Of a stretch of 64,000 nt of DNA, positions 14,068-59,184 are shown piece by piece; the first letter of the stretch is position 1, and every line of letters starts with the position of its first letter. The notes under the pieces are model-generated. The model ran no database searches and had not been told where the DNA came from. It was given only the letters and a program-made list of their open reading frames with translations. This DNA is from an uncultured virus (IMG/VR IMGVR_UViG_3300032295_003161) (Duplodnaviria > Heunggongvirae > Uroviricota > Caudoviricetes). Location: IMG/VR virus record IMGVR_UViG_3300032295_003161; one strand, written 5' to 3'. The position numbers and the translations under genes are program-made.

Positions 14068-14631
14068 CTATTTTATTCCGAAAATAGAGAAAATTTTAGG
14101 GTATTTCTGCTTTAAGTTATCGTATTTATCCCCAAAACCATACTCTGTAATCAAATCACTTGAATAGGTAAATTTTTCCTTATTAAAGTCAATAGTTGAA
14201 TTGATATTCATAAATTTAATTTTCAAATATCCTTCAACCTCAATATTAATTGGTTTCTTTTTTAGAACATCCGATAAGAAACTTGGCAATCCTTCTTTAA
14301 TATCGTTTACGTTTATAATACCAACGCCAATTATGTCAAAAGACTTATTTGGCTCTATTATTATCTTTTTAGTAGAAACTACATCAGCAAACTTTTTACC
14401 ATTGTAAAATAGCCTTAAATCAAATGAATTAATTTCTAATCTAAAATTAGATTTATTTGTAATTTCGATAGTAGCACTTACGTTTACATCATTACCTTTA
14501 ATACCTAAGTATTTGAAGTTTTTGATTTTATAATCATACTTCATTGCTAAATCAACTTGATATTTGAAATATCTATATAATCCAAATCCAGCCAATCCAA
14601 CACCGCCTATTATTAATGCTTTTTTAATCAT
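14068..14631 (-). CDS. N-anchored LEA type 2 (WHy) domain protein
   Basis: TM then IEITNKSNFRLEINSFDLRLFYNGKKFADV. Confidence 0.75.
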   Translation of the reverse strand: MIKKALIIGGVGLAGFGLYRYFKYQVDLAMKYDYKIKNFKYLGIKGNDVNVSATIEITNKSNFRLEINSFDLRLFYNGKKFADVVSTKKIIIEPNKSFDIIGVGIINVNDIKEGLPSFLSDVLKKKPINIEVEGYLKIKFMNINSTIDFNKEKFTYSSDLITEYGFGDKYDNLKQKYPKIFSIFGIK

Positions 14632-24062: not shown

Positions 24063-24767
24063 TTAAGCTTTTAATTTAATAGTTTGTCCATTAACAACAT
24101 TTGGATTACCAAATTGTTTTGCAACAGCGTTTCCACCTAATGCACGAGATAAGTTAATGTTATCAGCAGGATAGAAGTATAATTTAACAGTTGCGTTAGC
24201 AAGTACTTGACGAATGATAAGTTTCGTGAAACCATCAATTCTGTAAGCATACTTCATTGCGATAATATTAGTTTGTTGCTGATATGGGTCAATTGTTGGC
24301 ACTAATGTTTTTTGTGCTAAATTACCATTTGCATCTTTAGTGTTAACCGAAATAGTTTCTAAAACTTGGTTAGCAGTTGCAGATTGAATGTAAGTTAAAC
24401 CAACTGAATATGGTTGATTCATAAATTGGTACAACATTTCACGATAATTAATATCAGAAATTCCAGAAGAAATTGTAATTGAACCAATTACTAAATCTCC
24501 ACCAGTTGTGAAACCAGCATTGTTGATGTATTGGTATGAACCTAATACTTCAAAATTTGATACAGCTGAACCTGATGTAGATGTAATATCTACAATATAA
24601 GGTTGAGAAGTTGGAGCAGAACCTCCGCCCATCATATCTCCACCAGCGTTTCTGAAGAAATCATCTCCAGTAAATGATAAATCATCATCGATAAAACCAT
24701 CTGCATTTGCAAAGCTTTCCATTGCATTTCTTTGAGCAGAAGCTAAATATTTTCTTACGTTTGACAT
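24063..24767 (-). CDS. putative major capsid protein (beta-rich, possibly single jelly-roll)
   Basis: Beta-strand-rich core, acidic Gly-rich N-terminus, own promoter and terminator, three paralogs, near packaging ATPase; fold inferred. Confidence 0.6.
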   Translation of the reverse strand: MSNVRKYLASAQRNAMESFANADGFIDDDLSFTGDDFFRNAGGDMMGGGSAPTSQPYIVDITSTSGSAVSNFEVLGSYQYINNAGFTTGGDLVIGSITISSGISDINYREMLYQFMNQPYSVGLTYIQSATANQVLETISVNTKDANGNLAQKTLVPTIDPYQQQTNIIAMKYAYRIDGFTKLIIRQVLANATVKLYFYPADNINLSRALGGNAVAKQFGNPNVVNGQTIKLKA

Positions 24768-25795: not shown

Positions 25796-26224
25796 TTATA
25801 TTTCATGTTGGTAAGCATCTTTGCCATACATTTCAATAGCTTTTAAATTGTATGCTTTTTTAGCTTCAAAAATGGTTTTAAAAGAACCTAATTTTAAGGT
25901 TTTATTTTCATTACTTATACAAGCTCTATATCTTTTACCATATTTATCATAATAGATGCCCCTTCCTAACTTATTTTTAACATTTTTATTATAGTTATTT
26001 AATTTAGCAGATACAAATCTTAAATTTTCACGCCTATTGTCTTTTTTATTTCTATTTATATGGTCAACTATTTGACCTTTTTTAGCTTTTAAAATATATC
26101 TGTGTATAAGATTTGTGCCTTCTTTGCCTAAATAAACCCTATAATAACCTGAAGTTTTATCAAAATATATTTTTTTTTCTTTTAAAAGATAAATATCTTC
26201 TTCTGAAAGTAATAAATTTTCCAT
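25796..26224 (-). CDS. HNH endonuclease with AP2-like domain
   Basis: VDHINRNKKDNRRENLR; YRACI...LGSFKT..EAKKAY; start MENLLL. Confidence 0.9.
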   Translation of the reverse strand: MENLLLSEEDIYLLKEKKIYFDKTSGYYRVYLGKEGTNLIHRYILKAKKGQIVDHINRNKKDNRRENLRFVSAKLNNYNKNVKNKLGRGIYYDKYGKRYRACISNENKTLKLGSFKTIFEAKKAYNLKAIEMYGKDAYQHEI

Positions 26225-26703: not shown

Positions 26704-26923
26704 TTTTTACTTTATAAAGTTCTTTTACAATTTCAGTAAATCCTTGAATAGCTACATAACCAGTAGCTACTATTGTCCAATTATCGCCATCTAATTTGCC
26801 ATCAAATAACCCAACCGAAGCAATGATTAAAACCATTAGCTTTCTGGAAATCCAATTGTTTAAAAATTTATCAATTCTTTGCCCTGCGGATTTCCTTATG
26901 TTTTCTATTCTTTGTTTTGTCAT
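26687..26923 (-). CDS. putative holin
   Basis: SRKL followed by two hydrophobic segments, directly upstream of endolysin. Confidence 0.65.
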   Translation of the reverse strand: MTKQRIENIRKSAGQRIDKFLNNWISRKLMVLIIASVGLFDGKLDGDNWTIVATGYVAIQGFTEIVKELYKVKNGQNN

Positions 26924-27738
26924 AAGTAATATTTTAAAATTCTATCCTTGTGAAATTTAACCGCATCAGCTGGAGTAAATTTCTTTTTACCACCTTGCAA
27001 TTCTTTTTGTTGAAGCATTGGTGTAATTAGCTTTCTATAATTGTGAGAAATGTACTCATCAATAATAGGGTCTAATTTTTTTATATCTGCTCCTTTTATT
27101 TTTTCATCATCAATATCTACATAAACATAAACCCTTTGATTATCGTATTCGTGATATTCTTTATTTGTGTAAAGTTCAACGATTTTAAACATTTCGTATT
27201 TATCTTCAAACTTATTTCTATGCTTATCTACTGAATCGGTATTTTTGTGAAAACGCATCCAGTTTAAATTCTGCCAAATCTTTGGAGAAACACGCCCAAT
27301 AGATTGAAAGTGTAATATAATGTCCGTATCAGTATGCCTATTTGTTACAATAGCACCAACAAGGTCATTTGGCAAGTAATCCGATATGTAACGATTAATA
27401 TCTTCAATAAGCAAAAGTCCATTTCTAAAATCAAACAAAATCTTAAATAGCGTTTCTTGAACATCATTAATTGTCATTCGAGTTCCGTTATCGTGAAAAG
27501 GTCTAATTCTTCTAATTTCTATTTTAGGGTGCATTGAAAATCTTTTCACATCTGAAATACGCAAAGCTTTAATATCTTCATACTCATCATTAACATCAAG
27601 TATAAGTACCCTTCTTGGTCTTGTTCCTTTAGTTGGATTGCCTTGAACATAACTTTGAAGCATTTGCTTGGTCGTAAAAGTTTTTCCACAACCTTTACGA
27701 CCAACAGCAACGCCTAATTTTGGTTCTCTTTCTTCCAT
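26920..27738 (-). CDS. genome packaging ATPase, A32/FtsK-HerA type
   Basis: Walker A GRKGCGKT, Walker B LLLIED, RHxxxxxxxxxQ motif (NRHTDTDIILHFQ); no nuclease domain. Confidence 0.8.
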   Translation of the reverse strand: MEEREPKLGVAVGRKGCGKTFTTKQMLQSYVQGNPTKGTRPRRVLILDVNDEYEDIKALRISDVKRFSMHPKIEIRRIRPFHDNGTRMTINDVQETLFKILFDFRNGLLLIEDINRYISDYLPNDLVGAIVTNRHTDTDIILHFQSIGRVSPKIWQNLNWMRFHKNTDSVDKHRNKFEDKYEMFKIVELYTNKEYHEYDNQRVYVYVDIDDEKIKGADIKKLDPIIDEYISHNYRKLITPMLQQKELQGGKKKFTPADAVKFHKDRILKYYL

Positions 27739-46521: not shown

Positions 46522-47157
46522 TTATCCTATTAAAAACTTTAAATAGTCTGGCGTACCGCTATCGGCAATACCGCCTTTCTCAAATCTTATGTCGTTGTTT
46601 TTTTTATCAAATGTAGTGTTAGTGCCATCCGCAAGTTTTATTTGGTTAGAATTATTAACAACGTATAAATTATCTTTTCTTGTTCCAAATATTATTATGC
46701 CATCAAGCATTTCATCAATAAATAATTCTCTAATGTAATCTCCTCTGTTAATATCATAATTATCAGCAGGTGCATAATAATCACTATTTGTTCTTCTAAT
46801 TAAAGGATTTTTTATATTCAAAAAACATTCGTAAACAAAACCTTTGCTTTTAAGTTCAGAATGTAATTTAGCATAGTTTTCAGCAGATTGTTTTCTTTGA
46901 GTAAAGAAAAAACCTCCTTGCTCACTTTGAATATAATTTAAACCTATTTTTTTTCTATCAAAAACATTAAAATAGCTCCCTGTTCCATGATAAACCACCA
47001 TTGGCTCTCCATTTTCATCAACAACCTTACTTGCGTTTTCTGGGTCGTTTTCCCAATCCCCAAACCATTTCTTAAATTCTGGTGTGCGGACTAACTTATA
47101 TTGTTCAGTAGTTAAATTGCTTGGCTTACCATTAGGTGCTAATAACTCTTTTTTCAT
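46522..47157 (-). CDS. ADP-ribosyltransferase-like (ART-PolyVal type) protein, copy 3
   Basis: FKKWFGDW..SKVVDENGEPMVVYHGT, GFFFT, NQIK. Confidence 0.75.
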   Translation of the reverse strand: MKKELLAPNGKPSNLTTEQYKLVRTPEFKKWFGDWENDPENASKVVDENGEPMVVYHGTGSYFNVFDRKKIGLNYIQSEQGGFFFTQRKQSAENYAKLHSELKSKGFVYECFLNIKNPLIRRTNSDYYAPADNYDINRGDYIRELFIDEMLDGIIIFGTRKDNLYVVNNSNQIKLADGTNTTFDKKNNDIRFEKGGIADSGTPDYLKFLIG

Positions 47158-47158
47158 A

Positions 47159-47713
47159 TTATCCTATTAAAAACTTTAAATAGTCTGGCGTACCGCTATC
47201 AGAAATACCGCCTTTATCAAATCTTATATCGTTGTTGTTTTTGTCAAATGTAGTATTAGTACCATCGGCAAGTTTTATTTGGTTTGGATTATATACATTT
47301 ATATTAAAAAATGGTTTTTTTTTCTGTAAAACATCATCCCACTCTCCATATTTATAAATATAAGCATCAAAACCTTTTTCATCATAATCATCTCTAATTT
47401 TATCTGTTATTTTTCTTGCATTTATAAAATAGAGTTTACTTTTGCCATAATTATTTGCTAAATTTTTATTATCGGTAAACCAATGACCTACTCTTATATC
47501 ATTAAATTTGTTTTTAAAAATATTAAACCTTTTATTTGTTCCATGATAAACCACTAACGGCTCTCCATTTTCATCAACAACCTTACTTGCATTAGCAGGG
47601 TCGTTTTCCCAATCCCCAAACCACTTTTTAAATTCTGGTGTGCGGACTAACTTGTATTGTTCAGCAGTTAAGTTGCTTGGCTTACCATTAGGTGCTAATA
47701 ACTCTTTTTTCAT
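47159..47713 (-). CDS. ADP-ribosyltransferase-like (ART-PolyVal type) protein, copy 2
   Basis: Same termini; GHWFT core. Confidence 0.75.
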   Translation of the reverse strand: MKKELLAPNGKPSNLTAEQYKLVRTPEFKKWFGDWENDPANASKVVDENGEPLVVYHGTNKRFNIFKNKFNDIRVGHWFTDNKNLANNYGKSKLYFINARKITDKIRDDYDEKGFDAYIYKYGEWDDVLQKKKPFFNINVYNPNQIKLADGTNTTFDKNNNDIRFDKGGISDSGTPDYLKFLIG

Positions 47714-47714
47714 T

Positions 47715-48290
47715 TTATCCTATTAAAAATTTTAAATAGTCTGGCGTACCGCTATCAGAAATACCGCCTTTATCAAATCTTATATCGTTGTTGTTTTTAT
47801 CAAATGTAGTGTTAGTACCATCGGCAAGTTTTATTTGGTTTGCTTGAAAAACTACAATTTCATTTTGAAGAATAACTCCATCATAACCATCTTTTTGTAA
47901 TTTTTTTGTTAAGGTGGATTTATTTTTATTGTAATATTTTTCAGACCATTCTTTTAATGAATTTTCATCTAAATAAAATGGCTCTTTAATAAAACAATAT
48001 AAATTTAAAACAATATTCCCGTAATTAGATGCTGTTTTTTCATTTTGAGTAAAATAAAATCCCTCCCCATAACTTCCTCTGTTTGATTTTTCAAACTTGT
48101 TAAATGTTTTAAATGTTCCATGATAAACCACTAACGGCTCTCCATTTTCATCAACAACCTTACTTGCATTAGCAGGGTCGTTTTCCCAATCCCCAAACCA
48201 TTTTTTAAATTCTGGTGTGCGAACTAATTTATATTGTTCAGCAGTTAAATTGCTTGGCTTACCATTAGGTGCTAATAACTCTTTTTTCAT
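47715..48290 (-). CDS. ADP-ribosyltransferase-like (ART-PolyVal type) protein, copy 1
   Basis: YHGT, GFYFT, GYDGVI, EIVVF, NQIK. Confidence 0.8.
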   Translation of the reverse strand: MKKELLAPNGKPSNLTAEQYKLVRTPEFKKWFGDWENDPANASKVVDENGEPLVVYHGTFKTFNKFEKSNRGSYGEGFYFTQNEKTASNYGNIVLNLYCFIKEPFYLDENSLKEWSEKYYNKNKSTLTKKLQKDGYDGVILQNEIVVFQANQIKLADGTNTTFDKNNNDIRFDKGGISDSGTPDYLKFLIG

Positions 48291-48577: not shown

Positions 48578-48610
48578 AAAAAAAACCCACCAATTCGGTG
48601 GGTATTTTTT
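48578..48610. terminator. bidirectional intrinsic terminator
   Basis: A-run ACCCACC-aattc-GGTGGGT T-run between convergent genes. Confidence 0.8.
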
Positions 48611-49116
48611 TATAAGTGTTTCCAAAATTTTCCTCTTATTATTCCTAAAACATTAGTTCTACTTATTCCATACTTTTTTGACAAAGACATTCTGGTTTCA
48701 GAAAAACCAATTTTTCTTATTTCCAAAACTTGTTCTTCAGTAAGTTTGCATTTATGGTGCTTAATTCCTTTTTGGTCTTTTAATCCAGTTTCTATTGCAT
48801 GGCTCATATTCTCGCTATTTGTATGCCATTCTAAATTTTCAACTCTATTATCGGTTTTTATTCCGTTTTTATGATTTACAGTTGCCTTATTGTTTGGATT
48901 ATCAATAAAAGCGATTGCTACTAATCTATGTTCCGTAAAAAAATACATTTTACCTTCTTTAGACAAAACTCTTTTAACGTAACCATACCTATCTATATTT
49001 CTTCCAATAAGTCTTTCCTCAAAAACCCTTTCGCTAATCAAACGCTTAACATTTCCTAAATTAGATACTTGGTATAATCCTTCAAAACCAGCAATATCTT
49101 TCCAAATTTCTTCCAT
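48610..49116 (-). CDS. NUMOD4-HNH homing endonuclease
   Basis: EIWKDIAGFEGLYQVSNLGNVK; VNHKNGIKTDNRVENLEW. Confidence 0.92.
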   Translation of the reverse strand: MEEIWKDIAGFEGLYQVSNLGNVKRLISERVFEERLIGRNIDRYGYVKRVLSKEGKMYFFTEHRLVAIAFIDNPNNKATVNHKNGIKTDNRVENLEWHTNSENMSHAIETGLKDQKGIKHHKCKLTEEQVLEIRKIGFSETRMSLSKKYGISRTNVLGIIRGKFWKHL

Positions 49117-49135
49117 AATTTTATAAAAAAGTAAA

Positions 49136-49219
49136 GCTCCTACAAATCCAAACGCACTCGACCTCGTTCTTCATTGTAAGAGCCAATATTTTTAAGTTAC
49201 AAATTGTCGAGTGGTAACT
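49136..49219 (-). ncRNA. putative structured leader RNA (two hairpins, kissing loops), copy A
   Basis: Stems AGTTAC/GTAACT and GCTCTTACA/TGTAGGAGC; loops CACTCGAC/GTCGAGTG complementary; promoter TACATTTG 49226-49233. Confidence 0.7.
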
Positions 49220-49276
49220 ACTTGACAAATGTAGTAAAAAAAATTATTTGCAATCGGTTTCTTGGTTATTATTTAA

Positions 49277-49690
49277 TTAAGACAAATTATTACCTTGATT
49301 TTTTCTTCTCAAATAATCTTTTTTATATTTATTTTCGTGTTGTTTAATTTTACAAATTGATATAGCCTTAACCGTTTTTTTAGCTATTTTTTCTGTTTTT
49401 TTTAAAATTTTTTGTTGAAATTCTTCACTACAACTATCAAATATAAATTTATTTAATTCAAAATGTAATTCTGGATTTTTGCTTGGTTTAGGTATTCTAA
49501 ATTCTAAAGGGATTTTTATTTCATCTAAAACATCTTCAAAAAAATCTATATTAGAACAATTAAAATAAACCCATCTTAAATATTTATTCTTTTTAAGATT
49601 TATTATTTCTTGAACTGATAAATCTGAATATTGTCCAAATTTAAGAGTTGACTTCCTTGTTAGTTTTCTTAATAAAGTAACATCGGACAT
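49277..49690 (-). CDS. hypothetical protein with DUF3820-like FGxY motif
   Basis: LKFGQYSDLSVQEII....YLRW. Confidence 0.65.
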   Translation of the reverse strand: MSDVTLLRKLTRKSTLKFGQYSDLSVQEIINLKKNKYLRWVYFNCSNIDFFEDVLDEIKIPLEFRIPKPSKNPELHFELNKFIFDSCSEEFQQKILKKTEKIAKKTVKAISICKIKQHENKYKKDYLRRKNQGNNLS

Positions 49691-49692
49691 TT

Positions 49693-50967
49693 TTATACAA
49701 GCTTTAAAATTATATTCTCAAACTTCTTGGTAATATCGTTCCATTTCCATTTTACAACGTGGTTGTATGCGTTTTCTACAATAGTGCTTACTTGACCTTT
49801 CACTTCATCTTCTTCGTTTTGTAGGTTGTAAACAATACCACATACTTGAGCCACTTCTTCTGGATTAGAAATAAATCTAATTTTTTCAAAGTCATTTACA
49901 AATACTGCTCTTTGGATAAACTTGAATAAAAACGCATTGTTACCATTATCAGTAATTTCTTGAATAGAAGTATGTCTTGGAGCAATTACCAGTTTTTTAC
50001 AAGCCATTGCTTCAACTATTGATAATCCCCAACCTTCAGCCGTAGTGGTTGTAATAAAACAATCAAAAGTATTGTAGATTTTATTTAATTCGGATTCGGA
50101 AATACCATTATTTTCATTAAAATCTTTTGGGAAGAAAATATCTTTACCAACATCTAAACCTAACCTTTCAGATAATCTATAACAATCAATTCCCATTCGG
50201 TCTTGAGGATTACAATGGATATATAAAACGGCATTAGCTTGACTTGTATGCTTGAACATAGCAAAACCAATCATAAGAGTTCCTAAATCCTTTCTTGCGG
50301 AATTACGGTTTACGCTACCAAACACAAAAACATCACTTTTGCCAAAAATAAGTTCTTTGGTTCTATTGTTTTCAAAAGAATTGTCTATTGGGTGGAACAC
50401 TTCGGTATCTATTCCATGAGGAATGATTTTAATCTTTTTCCACTTGGATTCAGATATAAGCGGTTTTAAAACTGCTTTAGCATATTCAGTATAAGTAATA
50501 ACTTCATCAAACAAGTCTAATACAGCACAATCGCTTGGTCTTGGCTCACTATCTATTGGAGTGTATAGGATATACTTCGTTTTCTTTTTATTGGCTTTTG
50601 TACGCTCTTTTTTAACGTTTGCCAAATGCTCGGTCATTGAGTTTAAAACTTCAATATCATTTAATGCGAAAAACACATCAAAATCGTGTGAATAAAGTAT
50701 TCTTAAAAGTTCTAATCTGGCGTAGCCATCTTTTTTTTCATCGACTGCCAAACAAGGAATAACCATTACGTTTTCTTTGTAATTGTATGGCTTTTCAGTC
50801 AAGTCATTAATAGCTAATATCGTAATATTGAAGTTTTTGTTTTTGCTCCAATTCTCTATTAACTTTGTTGATACGTTACCGAATCCAGTTGTGCAATTAA
50901 AATCCCCATAAAATAGGATATTAACTGGTTGGTCTTTTTTAGTTTTCTTGGTGTGTACTACTTTCAT
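49693..50967 (-). CDS. GT-B (family 4-like) glycosyltransferase
   Basis: TGFGNV, IPHGID, NRNSARK, EGWGLSIVEAMAC. Confidence 0.9.
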   Translation of the reverse strand: MKVVHTKKTKKDQPVNILFYGDFNCTTGFGNVSTKLIENWSKNKNFNITILAINDLTEKPYNYKENVMVIPCLAVDEKKDGYARLELLRILYSHDFDVFFALNDIEVLNSMTEHLANVKKERTKANKKKTKYILYTPIDSEPRPSDCAVLDLFDEVITYTEYAKAVLKPLISESKWKKIKIIPHGIDTEVFHPIDNSFENNRTKELIFGKSDVFVFGSVNRNSARKDLGTLMIGFAMFKHTSQANAVLYIHCNPQDRMGIDCYRLSERLGLDVGKDIFFPKDFNENNGISESELNKIYNTFDCFITTTTAEGWGLSIVEAMACKKLVIAPRHTSIQEITDNGNNAFLFKFIQRAVFVNDFEKIRFISNPEEVAQVCGIVYNLQNEEDEVKGQVSTIVENAYNHVVKWKWNDITKKFENIILKLV

Positions 50968-51217
50968 TTTTTGTTTTTTTTCCTACTATTAAAACTACTC
51001 TAATGTTTTCTTTTTTAAATTCTAATCTGTCTTTTTCATTTTTATACAAATATTCGTATTGTTCAAAACCATTCTCAATCAAATGCTTTTTTAATTTTAG
51101 CGAATAATTTCCTTGAAGTGCTGTATCATATTCAGTAAAGGTTAAAGAATAAAATAAATTCAAGTTTAAATTTAAACCTATCAAAAGACCTAATCTTTTT
51201 GAAATTTGATTTTCCAT
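50939..51217 (-). CDS. hypothetical protein
   Basis: 92 aa ORF behind repeated promoter. Confidence 0.65.
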   Translation of the reverse strand: MENQISKRLGLLIGLNLNLNLFYSLTFTEYDTALQGNYSLKLKKHLIENGFEQYEYLYKNEKDRLEFKKENIRVVLIVGKKTKNESSTHQEN

Positions 51218-51284
51218 TTTTTTTATATGTTTTAAAGTTCAAGTCAAAAGTATAAAATATTATTTTAAATACAAAATATTATTT
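51211..51284 (-). promoter_or_regulatory. repeated promoter/leader block (near-identical to 63169-63243)
   Basis: - strand TTTG-N19-TACTTTTG..GAACTTTAAAA..ATGGAAAA. Confidence 0.75.
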
Positions 51285-51322
51285 TAGATATATTTTATTA
51301 TTTTAGATAATGTTTATTTTAT

Positions 51323-51844
51323 TTAATATTTACTGTTTATATTGTTTAGTCTTTTATACTCTAAATAACTTTCGTGTGCTTCTAATTCAGTATTAAAATA
51401 TCCAGTATGAATCTTTTTTTTATTTATTTGTATTTGTCCTAACCATTTTTTATGCTTTTTACAATAAGTTACACCAACATAAATACTGCTTTTATTTTTA
51501 TTTAAAAACTTATGTATGTTATTTTCAGAATGTGAAACCCATTCTAAATTTTCAATTCTATTGTCGTTTGGATTTGAGTTTATATGATTTATTTGAGGTT
51601 TATTATATGTGTTTTCAATAAAGTATTTAGCTATTATTCTATGAACTCTAAAAAGTTTGTCTTTTCCATTTATTTTCAAATTACATAAACAATAAAAATC
51701 TTTATCTAAATATTGTTTTATTATTTTATTTTCTAACTTAATTCTACCCATGTTACTAAAATAGTAATCCAAGTCATATTCATTTGTTTTTACCCAAATT
51801 TCATTTTCTAAATCTTCAATAAAAGTGTTTTTGTAAATTTCCAT
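51323..51844 (-). CDS. NUMOD4-HNH endonuclease with AP2-like C-terminus
   Basis: EIW..YYFSNMGRIK; INHINSNPNDNRIENLEW; start MEIYK. Confidence 0.9.
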   Translation of the reverse strand: MEIYKNTFIEDLENEIWVKTNEYDLDYYFSNMGRIKLENKIIKQYLDKDFYCLCNLKINGKDKLFRVHRIIAKYFIENTYNKPQINHINSNPNDNRIENLEWVSHSENNIHKFLNKNKSSIYVGVTYCKKHKKWLGQIQINKKKIHTGYFNTELEAHESYLEYKRLNNINSKY

Positions 51845-51851
51845 AATAATA

Positions 51852-51951
51852 AAAAGCATCTAATTTCGTAAAATGGTGGATTTACTACTCTTAAATGCTT
51901 TTAAATTTATATTTTTATGATATACATTATTCCACCATAGATAATGTTATC
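51852..51951 (-). ncRNA. putative structured leader RNA (kissing loops), copy B
   Basis: Stems GATAACATTAT/ATAATGTATATC and AAAAGCATTTAA/TTAGATGCTTTT; loops ATGGTGGA/TCCACCAT; promoter TACATTTG 51953-51960. Confidence 0.65.
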
Positions 51952-51967
51952 ACAAATGTAATAAAAA

Positions 51968-52594
51968 TTATTCAATTCCTTGCTCTCTATTGTCAGATAA
52001 ACTCATAACGTGATAAGTTGGTGGGTGGTTAACTGCTTTAGCGTGTGTGCCAAACTTATTCATTGATTCTATTAGCCTCCAATCGTGGCTATAATCTGAA
52101 TCATGCGTTGGCATTGTTTTTAAGAACTCGGTTCTAATAACTAATTCGCTATGACCAATCATTCCATATTGAAGTTGAGCAACTCTGTTGGCTCGTCTTG
52201 GTGCTACATAACTATCAAAGTACATAAAATCGTAATTGGTGTTTTCAATAGCCGACAAATAATTATCAAAATGGTTTGGTAGAATAATATCATCGTTGGC
52301 AAAAAAAGTAAAGTATTTACCTCTGGCAAGTTTTATGTTTTCATTAGTAATGAAGTAACCATGACCGCCACGATTTTCTTTATTGTTTTTTATTATCAAT
52401 TGGTTTCCTTTTGCGTTACAATCTTTTACAATATCAGCAAAGTAGTTGCTATCTACAAAATCTTGCATTATAGGACAACCATCTCCAATTACAAGTGCTT
52501 CCCAATCGTTAGCTGTTTGGTTGGCAATACATTCAATTGCTCTTATAGTTCCTTTTCTTCTACCGAAGCAAGGCATTGAAACAGTTAATCTCAT
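51968..52594 (-). CDS. GT-A (family 2-like) glycosyltransferase
   Basis: LTVSMPCF, QT..DWEALVIGDG, ARGKYFTFFANDD. Confidence 0.85.
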   Translation of the reverse strand: MRLTVSMPCFGRRKGTIRAIECIANQTANDWEALVIGDGCPIMQDFVDSNYFADIVKDCNAKGNQLIIKNNKENRGGHGYFITNENIKLARGKYFTFFANDDIILPNHFDNYLSAIENTNYDFMYFDSYVAPRRANRVAQLQYGMIGHSELVIRTEFLKTMPTHDSDYSHDWRLIESMNKFGTHAKAVNHPPTYHVMSLSDNREQGIE

Positions 52595-52857
52595 AGTTTT
52601 CTTATTTCTTTTTTAACTTTTTTAAAATATTCTTTTGTATCATATTCTTCAATTGGTTTATTTGGAGAATATTTTATTATTTCATCAACTGAAATTAAAG
52701 CACATTTTTTTGCTACTTCCCAATCATCATATTCAAAAGAAGTACCATTAACTTCTGTTAAAACTTGACAAGTTAGTGGTAGTGGCATAAAAAACAAATC
52801 TACTAATTCATGTGCTTTTTCTTTTGGTGTTAATAATTCAAGTTTCCCTTTTTTCAT
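52591..52857 (-). CDS. hypothetical phage protein
   Basis: TPKEKAHELV...AKKCALISVDEII. Confidence 0.7.
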   Translation of the reverse strand: MKKGKLELLTPKEKAHELVDLFFMPLPLTCQVLTEVNGTSFEYDDWEVAKKCALISVDEIIKYSPNKPIEEYDTKEYFKKVKKEIRKL

Positions 52858-52875
52858 AACCCTTTTTCTTTTTTT

Positions 52876-53031
52876 TTATCCATTTCTTATTGATTTTAAA
52901 CTATCATTTTTTCTATAAGGCATTACATCAAATGTAACACCTGATTCTGAATTATCTGTTCTGGTTTTATGAATAAGTTTGCCATTCATATAAATATAAC
53001 ATTCATTTCCTGATATTACAATGTGTGTCAT
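52876..53031 (-). CDS. small hypothetical protein (51 aa, not in ORF track)
   Basis: MTHIVISGNECYIYMNGKLIHK...; ATGA overlap with upstream stop. Confidence 0.5.
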   Translation of the reverse strand: MTHIVISGNECYIYMNGKLIHKTRTDNSESGVTFDVMPYRKNDSLKSIRNG

Positions 53032-53240
53032 AGTCCTTTTTCCTTTTTGAAGATTTCTAATAGTTCTTTTGACATTCTTTGTGTTATCTTAAATTGAGTA
53101 AATAGTCCATTTTTTAAACACCACTCCGCAAATTCAATAGCATAATCATCTGCTGTTTTTTCGCAATCAGTTAATAATGGTTCTTGCATACCACCAAATT
53201 CTTTTGGAACTAATGCGTTAAATTTTTCTTTTAGTGTCAT
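53028..53240 (-). CDS. hypothetical protein, paralog family
   Basis: MTLKEKF..ADDYAIEFAEW..KELLEIFKKEK. Confidence 0.7.
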   Translation of the reverse strand: MTLKEKFNALVPKEFGGMQEPLLTDCEKTADDYAIEFAEWCLKNGLFTQFKITQRMSKELLEIFKKEKGL

Positions 53241-53375
53241 AGCTGTTTTTATTTTTTAAATAATCTAATGTAGCTTTTTTTTCAGCCAACAAAAATTCAA
53301 CTATAATTTTGTTGTCTTGATTTTCTATTAATGCATTATCAATTCTCATTAATTTTTCTAAAATTTCTTTTTTTG

Positions 53376-53579
53376 TCATAGTTGTTTTTCCTTTTTGAAT
53401 TTTTCTAACATTTCTCTTAATGTTTTTGTTTCATCTTTTTCAGTAAGTAGCCAAAAAGCAAACCCAATAGCATACTCATCTGCTAATTCTACTAACCGTT
53501 CTGCTGATTGATTTGTCAGTATAAAACTTTCTTGATATACAACAACTGGTTCTTCTTGGAATTTTTCTTTAAGTGTCAT
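53376..53579 (-). CDS. hypothetical protein, paralog family
   Basis: MTLKEKF..ADEYAIGFAFW..EMLEKFKKEK. Confidence 0.7.
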   Translation of the reverse strand: MTLKEKFQEEPVVVYQESFILTNQSAERLVELADEYAIGFAFWLLTEKDETKTLREMLEKFKKEKQL

Positions 53580-53841
53580 ATCCTTTTTCTTTTTTGAAGA
53601 TTTGTAATAGTTCTTTATGCGTTTGACCTTTAGTGTATTTACTACTTGAATTTAACCAATACTCTTTTGCCATCCAGTCTGAAAACTGAATAGTAAATTC
53701 ATCTCTCAATTCTTCGGTTTCTTCAATACCAACTAATATTCCTGCTTCAAATAATTCATCTTCGGTTTCTCTGCCATTTAGATTTTGCTTATTCAATAAA
53801 GAATACCATTCTACCTTTTCTTTAATTGTTTTTGGATTCAT
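53569..53841 (-). CDS. hypothetical protein, paralog family
   Basis: DEFTIQFSDW..KELLQIFKKEK. Confidence 0.7.
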   Translation of the reverse strand: MNPKTIKEKVEWYSLLNKQNLNGRETEDELFEAGILVGIEETEELRDEFTIQFSDWMAKEYWLNSSSKYTKGQTHKELLQIFKKEKGYDT

Positions 53842-53924
53842 AATTCTACTTTTTAATATACCCTACTAATACAAATTTTCCGTAAACCCATTTGTAGTAT
53901 GGGATTAAATCTTCTGTCATTACT

Positions 53925-54641
53925 TTAGCTTTGTCTTCCATCGTAACTCTCTACCATTTTGTCAAATTCAGCACATATATCCAAAACCATTTCATAACTC
54001 CATTTTTGCTTCATATAATCGTTTTCTTTTATGTATTTAGCTGGATTACCTACATACGTTCCAAAACAATTTGGATTGATTTTTTTAGTAACTATTGCAC
54101 CCATACCAATCATTGCATAAGAGCCTATTTTAGAGTACTGGTGGCAAATACTACCTAAACCCATATTAACTCCTTTTCCAAGCAAAGAATGACCGCCAAT
54201 TAGCACATTGCAACTAATAGTACAGCCATCGTTAATTTCGCAATCGTGTCCAACGTGAGAACCTCTCAACATAGTGATATTATCTCCTAATTGTGTAGGC
54301 ACATAACAACCTGCATTAACAGTTACATACTCTCTGAAAACATTATTATTACCAATGTTAGTTCCTTTGTTTTTCTTTCCAAAAAACTCTTTATGCTCTG
54401 GCTCGTTCCCTATTGAACAAAAAGGCTCAAATACATTATTGTTGCCAATAAATGTTTTTCCTTGAATTACCACATACGCACCGATTTTGTTACCCTTTCC
54501 AATTCTAACATTATTTCCAATTATAGCCGTTGGGTGTATATCGTTATCGTTTACAATTTGCAAAAACCTTTTTGATGGTTTTCTTCCTATTTCAGTAGTT
54601 GTGGTGTAATATTGTTTTTGAAATGGTGTTAAATCGTTCAT
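53925..54641 (-). CDS. LpxA-like hexapeptide-repeat acyltransferase
   Basis: IHPTAII, FREYVTVNAG, HVGHDC, HQYSKIGSYAMIG. Confidence 0.85.
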   Translation of the reverse strand: MNDLTPFQKQYYTTTTEIGRKPSKRFLQIVNDNDIHPTAIIGNNVRIGKGNKIGAYVVIQGKTFIGNNNVFEPFCSIGNEPEHKEFFGKKNKGTNIGNNNVFREYVTVNAGCYVPTQLGDNITMLRGSHVGHDCEINDGCTISCNVLIGGHSLLGKGVNMGLGSICHQYSKIGSYAMIGMGAIVTKKINPNCFGTYVGNPAKYIKENDYMKQKWSYEMVLDICAEFDKMVESYDGRQS

Positions 54642-54740
54642 GTCGCTTTATATTAAATGGATTAATGTTACTATAAGTAAAATAAGCATCAGCCATGCAA
54701 TTATTTCGTTTATAATATCCTGTTTGTTGTATTTCATTAT

Positions 54741-55313
54741 TTATGAATATTTGTTAATTATATTGTTTTCTAACTCAAATTGTTTTCTTGCTTTATATGC
54801 TTCTTCTTCAGTTTCAAAAAAACCTATCCTTATTTTTTTTGAATTATGACAAATATAAGAGATAAACCTACCTTCTTTATTAAGACAAACACCAACATAT
54901 TTACTGGTTTTGGTTTTGTTTTTAGACATGTGAGATTGGTTTTCCCCTCTGTTAACCCATTCTAAATTATCAAACCTATTGTTTGATTTGTCAGAATCTA
55001 TATGGTTTATTTCTGTTTTATTTTCAATTGGCTCTAAAAAACATTCTGCAACAGCTCTATGTAAACTTTTTCTTTTAAACTTATCAAAAACCCTTAAAAA
55101 AACTGAATTATAATTATTTTTATAATGTTTATTTATTGATAATATTTTAGGTTTAAAAGTCATTATTCTTCCATTGGATTTATGAATAACTCTATGTAAA
55201 GATTTTACTCTCCCCATATTAGAAACTTGATAATATCCTTCAAATTCTAAAATATCTTTCCAAATTTCTCCTTCTAAATCTTGTAGCGAATGATTTTCGT
55301 TGTTTTTTTGCAT
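54741..55313 (-). CDS. NUMOD4-HNH endonuclease with AP2-like C-terminus
   Basis: EIWKDILEFEGYYQVSNMGRVKS; INHIDSDKSNNRFDNLEW. Confidence 0.92.
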   Translation of the reverse strand: MQKNNENHSLQDLEGEIWKDILEFEGYYQVSNMGRVKSLHRVIHKSNGRIMTFKPKILSINKHYKNNYNSVFLRVFDKFKRKSLHRAVAECFLEPIENKTEINHIDSDKSNNRFDNLEWVNRGENQSHMSKNKTKTSKYVGVCLNKEGRFISYICHNSKKIRIGFFETEEEAYKARKQFELENNIINKYS

Positions 55314-55332
55314 AATTTTATAAAAAAGTAAA

Positions 55333-55416
55333 GCCTTTACATATCCAAACGCTCACTACTTCGTTTTTCAATGCAAAGGCAAATATTTTTAAGTTACTAA
55401 ATGTAGTGAGGTAACT
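55333..55416 (-). ncRNA. putative structured leader RNA (kissing loops), copy C
   Basis: Stems AGTTAC/GTAACT and GCCTTTGCA/TGTAAAGGC; loops CTCACTAC/GTAGTGAG; promoter TATATTTG 55423-55430. Confidence 0.7.
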
Positions 55417-55440
55417 GATACACAAATATATAACATTTTT

Positions 55441-59108: not shown

Positions 59109-59184
59109 TTTTTTTGTTTTAGTTAATCCTTCAAAAGTATAAAATATTATATTAAATACAAAATATTATATTTAATAAAACGTA

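Follow-up and report, generated by a model that had tools for sequence, protein, structure and literature searches.

An apparently uncatalogued kissing-loop leader RNA family of Bacteroidota phages, possibly a transcription attenuator

According to the accessible parts of two reports (PMC9788692, PMC11611296) the guanidine-IV riboswitch is built of two hairpins and a pseudoknot, its 3' hairpin is a terminator, and elongation of P2 shortens the linker and opposes the kiss. Among phage RNAs, the P1 c4 antisense RNA is listed in the accessible part of PMC2864571. In this article we describe a leader RNA of about 95 nt, three copies of which (W1, W2 and W3) lie on the minus strand of a 64,000-nt stretch of DNA from an uncultured Caudoviricetes virus, called here the window. 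Each unit opens with a TAnnTTTG box and a first hairpin (hairpin 1). An A-rich linker connects this to the long hairpin 2, in which an internal loop separates the lower stem from a 5-bp upper stem topped by the apical loop, and a U-run leads on to the ATG of a gene. A word K in the first loop is complementary to a word K' in the apical loop of hairpin 2, and the two could form a kissing helix. Comparison of homologues points to a real, apparently uncatalogued family of phage leader RNAs, the function of which we infer. The reading that we favour, with roughly even confidence, is that Bacteroidota phages have in this leader a portable attenuator acting on transcription close to the promoter, in which the kiss would oppose closure of the terminator.

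A preliminary description of this DNA had suggested a comparison with Rfam: no family matches the leader at its gathering score, and a search of the whole window against Rfam 15 at that threshold gave 0 matches; no tRNA was found in the window either. No description of the leader family was found in full-text searches of the literature, in which motif catalogues were covered in part, so that an unnamed entry is possible.

Covariation in the leader family

Homologues were collected with a DNA pattern which fixes only the tail of the box, hairpin 1 and TAAA, and which was run on viral and metagenome contigs. After 4 short loci had been removed and duplicates collapsed, at least 106 distinct pattern matches were obtained, and the leader sets of 31-33 copies used below were drawn from the matches listed. 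Among these listed matches a kiss of at least 6 nt at a fixed place was present in 31 of the 40 with a TA-box and in 0 of the 66 others (p 5e-19), this criterion having been chosen after a first look at the matches. In the 32 leaders parsed, K begins on the first position of its loop or beside it, and K' ends at the upper stem or directly beside it. The helix measures 6-10 bp and its letters change almost from copy to copy: there are 22 different kiss 7-mers among 33 leaders, and no column of the kiss alignment reaches 90% conservation. The mean length of pairing is 7.9 nt for cognate loops and 3.5 nt for 1056 non-cognate pairs. Conserved across the leaders are the internal tandem G-A module and the linker adenines; in 32 leaders the internal loop is of the tandem G-A type in 27, loop-E-like in 3 and different in 2.

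For the analysis of covariation 48 copies were aligned by fitting to a covariance model of which the kiss is not part; W3 was left out. All 29 pairs show changes on both sides, and 94.6% of the cells of the whole structure are paired compared with 34-44% when the partners are slid, figures to be taken with caution since many rows also trained the model. In the kissing helix alone 8 of 8 pairs covary and 91.5% of the cells are paired; a covariance model of collected homologues had been proposed in the preliminary description as a check, and the compensatory changes are there in every kissing pair. Hairpin 1 is fixed by the search pattern, its conservation among pattern matches is therefore circular; hairpin 1 covaries, however, also in loci which were found via their protein.

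The lower stem tells which strand is concerned. With strand-symmetric scoring 38 G-U and only 1 A-C were counted among 409 oppositions, a bias which means that selection acts on the transcribed strand. In W1, W2 and W3 alike the lower stem of hairpin 2, read on the coding strand, contains a single internal G-U opposition, just as had been noticed from the window alone, and together with the covarying kissing pairs the G-U excess upholds the earlier claim of structure at the RNA level. A feature acting as DNA, such as an operator palindrome or a single-strand origin, is very improbable: GTTAC-N-GTAAC palindromes without hairpin 2 do stand at Bacteroidota promoters (L111, L149, L191), but the 38:1 bias, the U-tract, the fixed promoter spacing and the covariation of hairpin 1 in protein-found loci all speak against it. 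The same low probability covers a small-molecule riboswitch: the topology of the leader equals that of guanidine-IV, but the kiss has no invariant nucleotides and the genes have no common function that could define a ligand.

A looser detector applied to all loci gave 50 distinct matches with 37 codes (a code being the K/K' pair of a copy), L252, P12002L 38952 and G013 21454 being doubtful. Cultured phages are among the carriers: Flavobacterium phages hattifnatt9-1, mumin6-1, snusmum9-1 and morran9-1, Cellulophaga phages phi19:1 and phi10:1, and Polaribacter phage P12002L. The code is GTGAGACG/CGTCTCAC at gp044 of hattifnatt9-1, GTGGAACG/CGTTCCAC in mumin6-1 and snusmum9-1, and GTGAGAAG/CTTCTCAC in morran9-1, while outside the kiss these leaders are 87-93% identical. 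Since different codes occur in cultured phages with named hosts, the mechanism is directly testable. In bacterial genomes 1 leader (L459, in a Flavobacterium metagenome-assembled genome, MAG) was found among 120 pattern matches, one check of which covered 74 sources; a model search of the family around G021 gave a leader in 1 of 151 genomes with 24 candidates scored per genome, which does not imply absence from the others. One Flavobacterium MAG holds three leader copies.

Leader units in the window and the genes behind them

Architecture detectors into which no leader sequence except the box was built find exactly W1, W2 and W3 in the 64 kb. The architecture detectors found 0 kissing-loop units in 20 shuffled windows, and the yield was 24 units in 0.86 Mb of real genomes versus 2 in 2.57 Mb of shuffled genomes. 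Folded singly, W3 has a strong z-score (-4.2), those of W1 (-1.6) and W2 (-2.1) being modest; the real support is comparative. The order of box, hairpin, linker, hairpin, U-run and ATG claimed by the preliminary description was found in all three units where it had been placed, and within each copy the loop words are exactly complementary over 8 nt and pair poorly across copies. The Bacteroidota sigma-A box sits at -12 to -5 (PMC9723704, in its accessible part), which puts +1 at 49221, 51948 and 55418 and the beginning of hairpin 1 at +2 or +3; hairpin 1 starts 5-6 nt past the box in W1, W2 and W3. The features are as follows.

49117-49233, minus strand: W1 leader unit
49226-49233, minus strand: W1 Bacteroidota sigma-A -7 box TACATTTG, predicted +1 at 49221
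49195-49219, minus strand: W1 hairpin 1, 6 bp, its loop opening with K CACTCGAC (49213-49206)
49185-49194, minus strand: W1 linker, A-rich
49135-49184, minus strand: W1 hairpin 2, with lower stem, 4x4 tandem G-A internal loop (UGAA/GGAU) and 5-bp upper stem
49162-49155, minus strand: K' GTCGAGTG, which follows AG in the 10-nt apical loop of W1 hairpin 2
49117-49134, minus strand: W1 U-tract and A/U-rich start region, before ATG 49116
48610-49116, minus strand: W1 gene, NUMOD4-HNH_3 endonuclease open reading frame (ORF), 168 aa
48585-48603, no strand assigned: terminator-like bidirectional hairpin past the W1 gene
51845-51960, minus strand: W3 leader unit
51953-51960, minus strand: W3 -7 box TACATTTG, predicted +1 at 51948
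51924-51947, minus strand: W3 hairpin 1, 7 bp, extendable, loop CT plus K ATGGTGGA (51938-51931)
51852-51902, minus strand: W3 hairpin 2, GAGUA/GAAA internal loop, 8-nt loop equal to K' TCCACCAT (51880-51873)
51859, minus strand: upstream in-frame AUG within the 3' strand of W3 hairpin 2
51323-51844, minus strand: W3 gene, HNH_3 plus AP2 endonuclease ORF, 173 aa from the probable ATG 51844, with a degenerate NUMOD4-like start
55314-55430, minus strand: W2 leader unit
55423-55430, minus strand: W2 -7 box TATATTTG, predicted +1 near 55418
55392-55416, minus strand: W2 hairpin 1, with K CTCACTAC (55410-55403)
55333-55380, minus strand: W2 hairpin 2, tandem G-A internal loop, 10-nt loop AA plus K' GTAGTGAG (55359-55352)
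55314-55332, minus strand: W2 U-tract and start region, before ATG 55313
54741-55313, minus strand: W2 gene, NUMOD4-HNH_3 endonuclease ORF, 190 aa

W1 and W2 are related, with 24 differences in 116 nt, including 3 of the 8 positions in each loop word. W3 is a separate sequence lineage: it escapes, at E<=1, a covariance model made from leaders of the W1/W2 type, and where the W1/W2 type has UGAA/GGAU it has GAGUA/GAAA, presumably a loop E/sarcin-ricin-type motif. A loop-E-based pattern run on viral sequences gave 0 leaders among 91 distinct matches, a W3-specific pattern had 1 match, which is not a leader, the search with the W3 protein gave no confirmed locus, and W3 DNA had no real match in cultured phages; hence there is no close W3 homologue in the sequences searched. 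The W3 protein matches HNH_3 and, weakly, AP2, without a NUMOD4 match in Pfam at E 1e-3, and its NUMOD4-like N-terminus is visible by alignment only; the statement that all three genes are NUMOD4-HNH genes is thus right for W1 and W2 and goes too far for W3. The further HNH gene of the window (25796-26224) indeed lacks a leader, as had been reported, its start standing directly behind the upstream stop.

The leader is not specific to NUMOD4-HNH genes, contrary to what had been supposed. We scanned 31 downstream proteins, all against Pfam and 23 also against PHROGs: 7 are NUMOD4+HNH_3, 1 is another HNH, 2 are endonuclease VII-like, 5 DUF6291, 1 Lin1244_N, 1 Mom, 1 an SNF2/DEAD helicase, 1 HTH and 3 phrog_33177, and 9 are without family match. 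Conversely, in NUMOD4-HNH loci found by protein the leader was detected in 7 of 80 and 7 of 80, and the covariance model finds it in 10 of the first 80; many of these loci have no Bacteroidota box at all. Nevertheless, the leader does travel with its ORF, as two sites of the close relative G001 confirm: the genes flanking W2 and W3 abut there without a trace of box, leader or ORF (the missing segments run from ~54760 to 55438 and from ~51332 to 51967), so that the three behave as one indel unit. The W1 site is occupied also in G001, G005 and G009. In G009 (L022) the W1-type nuclease (48699-49067) has only 122 aa, its C-terminal domain is gone, and the leader is intact with the same code.

These data bear on the second function considered in the preliminary description, that of an RNA partner of the HNH nuclease (a guide, a scaffold or a type III-like antitoxin). 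The joint gain or loss of box, leader and ORF would agree with it, and the order of promoter, RNA, terminator and toxic gene resembles that of type III toxin-antitoxin loci; but the downstream proteins span at least 9 unrelated family assignments, most NUMOD4-HNH genes have no leader, and nearly identical leaders precede an HNH gene (L107) and the gene of a Lin1244_N replication protein (L139). Because the downstream genes are unrelated in family, we regard a nuclease partner as extremely improbable; the leader is probably an expression gate, and of the two functions proposed earlier the cis attenuator is the more likely one in view of the covariation, the G-U bias and the U-tract.

In cultured phages the leader stands also before replication genes. 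With leaders at about 9358, 13299 and 14334 of MN812207.1, Flavobacterium phage hattifnatt9-1 carries three copies, before a helicase, a NUMOD4 endonuclease and gp044, the last heading a replication block of a DUF6291 gene and a primase; Polaribacter phage P12002L has one leader before a replication protein, and Cellulophaga phages phi19:1 and phi10:1 have one each ahead of a primase block. Since whole replication or primase blocks are headed by the leader, read-through must occur. The annotated start of the hattifnatt9-1 helicase gp034 (MN812207.1; L588 9441) falls within the leader; an ORF of 456 aa, in agreement with homologues, results when translation begins at the ATG 18 nt past the stem.

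Some related elements were noticed beside the family proper. An extra small hairpin (AGGT/ACCT or CGGT/ACCG) lies between leader and ATG in L003, L106, L135, L153 and L203, as well as in L588 (14455-14490) and L590 (about 14300-14336); it precedes phrog_33177 genes in three scanned cases and is possibly a second control element. A putative anti-K site in L003 was rejected, as it coincides with this separate hairpin, which is found with other codes too. Upstream of position 1501, L053, L092 and L094 have variant leaders without hairpin 1, read by eye, in which the 5' end of the transcript is complementary to segments flanking the inner hairpin of a long stem. L029/L032/L033, L041 and L075/L085/L086 (also upstream of 1501) have another leader type before NUMOD4-HNH genes with Shine-Dalgarno-like starts, where, by eye, a word that recurs close to the start codon is complementary to a hairpin loop or arm. 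In L111, L149/L163 and L191 the GTTAC-N-GTAAC palindrome follows right after a TA..TTTG box without a second hairpin; these are probably DNA operators, and the small regulator-like ORFs behind them are presumably of the HxlR type.

Terminator signature, loop codes and the readings of function

Hairpin 2 has a GC-rich base, and in 27 of 32 leaders the 8 nt behind it contain at least 6 T (of the five leaders without such a run, two had been mis-parsed); the feature is seen upstream of only 1-4% of 84 window ORFs. Even with the ATG at a distance of 44-54 nt the U-run keeps its place behind the hairpin; this and the GC-rich base make up the signature of an intrinsic terminator in the leader. The stem base is located about 85-90 nt from +1, hairpin 1 and K' are spaced by 32-38 nt in 32 of 32 leaders, and the mean energies of the kiss duplex (-11.2 kcal/mol) and of the lower-stem gain (-14.5) are of the same order. 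On the grounds of the guanidine-IV-like topology, the terminator signature and the comparable energies the leader can be read as a kiss-gated attenuator. Hairpin 2 and the U-tract would form an intrinsic terminator, releasing an RNA which would measure ~94-101 nt if it ends in the U-tract. K may pair with K' while the polymerase still synthesises the 3' arm, and the A-rich linker, held taut, would delay closure of the lower stem, by which a fraction of the polymerases could read through into the gene. The outcome would be a throttle or time gate on dose-sensitive genes (homing nucleases, Mom, helicases, replication initiators), and the balance might be shifted by no input at all, by a phage protein or by the short RNA itself.

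Several observations weigh against this attenuator. The leaders are missing from the output of a simple terminator scan restricted to loops of 3-8 nt, and in several copies the U-tract is broken (UUUACUUU in W1 and W2). The linker is still 10-18 nt long after stem closure in most copies, which might let the kiss persist beside the terminator, or even stabilise the terminated RNA instead; the correlation of linker with arm is negative, partly as an effect of where the stem base is called. Finally, in W3 and a few other copies the stem base lies 9-11 nt before the ATG, which fits translational control too.

Translational control would mean that hairpin 2, or K' pairing with a copy of K at the start codon, limits the access of ribosomes, the kiss being the toggle. 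Ribosome-binding site (RBS) sequestering hairpins are used by T-even homing endonucleases (accessible part of PMC2988022), the in-frame AUG 51859 is buried in the W3 stem, and the distance of 9-11 nt is seen in 4 of 37 detector rows. An extra copy of K stands just before the ATG in L107, L139 and L345. We consider this mode unlikely: in the 37 rows the stem base is 17-54 nt from the ATG in 32 and 9-14 nt in 5 (mostly 17-25 nt, in some copies 44-54 nt), the U-tract tracks the stem and not the ATG, and neither loop generally pairs with the start region (median rank 0.53-0.54 against non-cognate loops, 31 leaders). Pairing with a third site as a general rule was rejected as well, being seen only in the three loci just named, with a median rank of 0.54 over the 31 leaders.

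A complete promoter-to-terminator unit of near-constant size could also be a stand-alone stable small RNA (a sponge, an exclusion or immunity factor, a decay-resistant fold) that is merely co-transcribed, the kiss compacting and protecting it, and the conserved tandem G-A module and linker adenines could make tertiary contacts. However, nearly every detected copy sits directly before an ORF of the same strand and no outside target was seen, the W1 and W2 codes occurring nowhere else in the window; we judge such an RNA to be quite unlikely.

The copy-specific loop codes themselves are real, as first described: in the window the cognate loop duplexes reach -13.1, -11.8 and -11.6 kcal/mol, and no cross pair is stronger than -4.1. 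All 9 pairs of co-resident codes (window, hattifnatt9-1, G022) differ, but only 0.35 shared pairs would be expected by chance (share probability 0.038). The kiss does not turn over faster than the rest of the leader (16/128 versus 66/727, p 0.25, 8 independent close pairs), and the code GCTTCGA occurs in 5 of 33 leaders, from unrelated phages. We found no sign that the codes were selected to avoid cross-talk, the role which the preliminary description had given them. YUNR motifs are present in 26 of 32 first loops, a count which we do not use as evidence.

The codes allow a more elaborate variant, a self-addressed antisense timer, which we hold to be possible but doubtful. Here the terminated short RNA would offer K' in trans to the K of nascent transcripts and might thereby block the cis kiss and increase termination, the premise being that the cis kiss of the short RNA is disfavoured once the terminator is complete. 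The leader would then, tentatively, be an RNA timer that is addressed by its code and needs no ligand. Its default state in a naive cell would be ON, and its own terminated product would turn it OFF, giving a burst followed by a code-private self-shutoff. Several points speak for it: K becomes accessible 32-38 nt ahead of synthesis of the K' in the same transcript, the complementarity is strict yet sequence-free, the window copies are nearly orthogonal, and a transient burst suits homing nucleases and replication initiators. As precedents, the short leader RNAs IsrK and P4 CI/seqA/seqC act in trans on their own read-through transcript (PMC4825925, accessible part). Against it stand the unremarkable turnover of the kiss, the distinctness of co-resident codes expected by chance alone, and the recurrence of one code across unrelated phages. 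A convergent antisense RNA over the leader is unlikely: a reverse TAnnTTTG was found in 2 of 31 leaders, other promoter types not being examined, and this candidate was dropped.

Whatever its mode of action, the family is well supported and is missing from Rfam 15; its tertiary helix covaries with unusual clarity, and it heads both nuclease cassettes and replication blocks in Bacteroidota phages. If a ligand-free kiss gates the terminator, a mode of attenuation would be added, mobile phage genes would be seen to bring their own expression control, and orthogonal RNA parts would become available for Bacteroidota, a phylum with few of them. Should the timer be true, homing nucleases and replication initiators would share a protein-free, swappable burst-then-silence module, and the family would supply dozens of naturally occurring, mutually orthogonal RNA switches for this phylum.

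Other features of the window were noted apart from the leaders. Three tandem paralogous ORFs with near-identical N- and C-termini lie at 46522-48290 (minus strand), and the two that were scanned match Pfam ART-PolyVal. At 51252, 59139 and 63211 (minus strand) a TACTTTTG box stands behind a common A/T-rich segment of ~30 nt, identical at 51252 and 63211 and with one change at 59139; this may be a shared early promoter or operator. Among many small membrane-type ORFs lie a beta-rich orphan protein (24063-24767, minus strand), possibly the capsid protein of an unusual virus type, and a P-loop ATPase (26920-27738, minus strand) with weak HerA/AAA and terminase matches, possibly a packaging ATPase. 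The candidate capsid gave no tblastn match, a structure model with a predicted local distance difference test (pLDDT) of 32, and unnamed Atlas clusters only.

Comparison with known systems

In antisense attenuators of the pT181/pIP501 type loop-loop recognition decides on a terminator ahead of a plasmid rep gene; in the phage leader, unlike there, both loops are on the same strand and no antisense promoter box is conserved. HEARO/omega RNA and type III antitoxins are partner RNAs of nucleases, whereas the leader is not strictly linked to one protein family. The P1 c4 RNA is a short-RNA phage leader working by premature termination through short complementary loops, and the leader has no match to c4 in Rfam.

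Similar short-RNA leaders are IsrK of Gifsy-1 and P4 CI with seqA/seqC, where premature termination proceeds via short complementary loops and, as with our leader, replication or toxic genes are gated (PMC4825925, as far as its accessible part describes them). In contrast to these and to c4, the leader has both complementary loops inside one unit of ~95 nt, and a third downstream site in three loci only. As in the T-even homing endonucleases, a mobile nuclease cassette carries an expression-limiting RNA structure (PMC2988022, accessible part); in the leader, unlike the T-even RBS hairpins, the box precedes all of the structure and there are also a kiss and a U-tract; the leader stands before genes other than those of nucleases too and leaves the start region mostly outside its stem (17-54 nt off in 32 of 37 rows). 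The Rfam family TEG147, the only hint given by the window in E-value mode, weakly resembles W3 hairpin 2 (27.5 bits, E 0.038, gathering score 56.1) via the GAGUAG/CGAAA internal loop and the U-tail, but its model has no first hairpin or kiss, and neither TEG147 nor another Rfam family matched the leaders of 20 homologous loci (E-value mode).

Guanidine-IV is close in build. The phage leader is not a member of that family because its kiss has no conserved letters and its genes share no ligand: a kiss of 6-10 bp with freely varying letters replaces the conserved pocket, the leader precedes nucleases and replication genes and not exporters, it has no Rfam match, and it contains the internal tandem G-A or loop-E-type module. 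Both the guanidine-IV (mepA)/Gd4v RNAs, as far as the accessible parts of their reports describe them, and the leader have two hairpins, a loop-loop pseudoknot and a terminator-like 3' hairpin with U-tract within ~88-105 nt. Also similar would be the proposed competition between kiss and terminator via shortening of the linker, which in the phage leader may be set by a strong, sequence-free helix and not by a ligand pocket.

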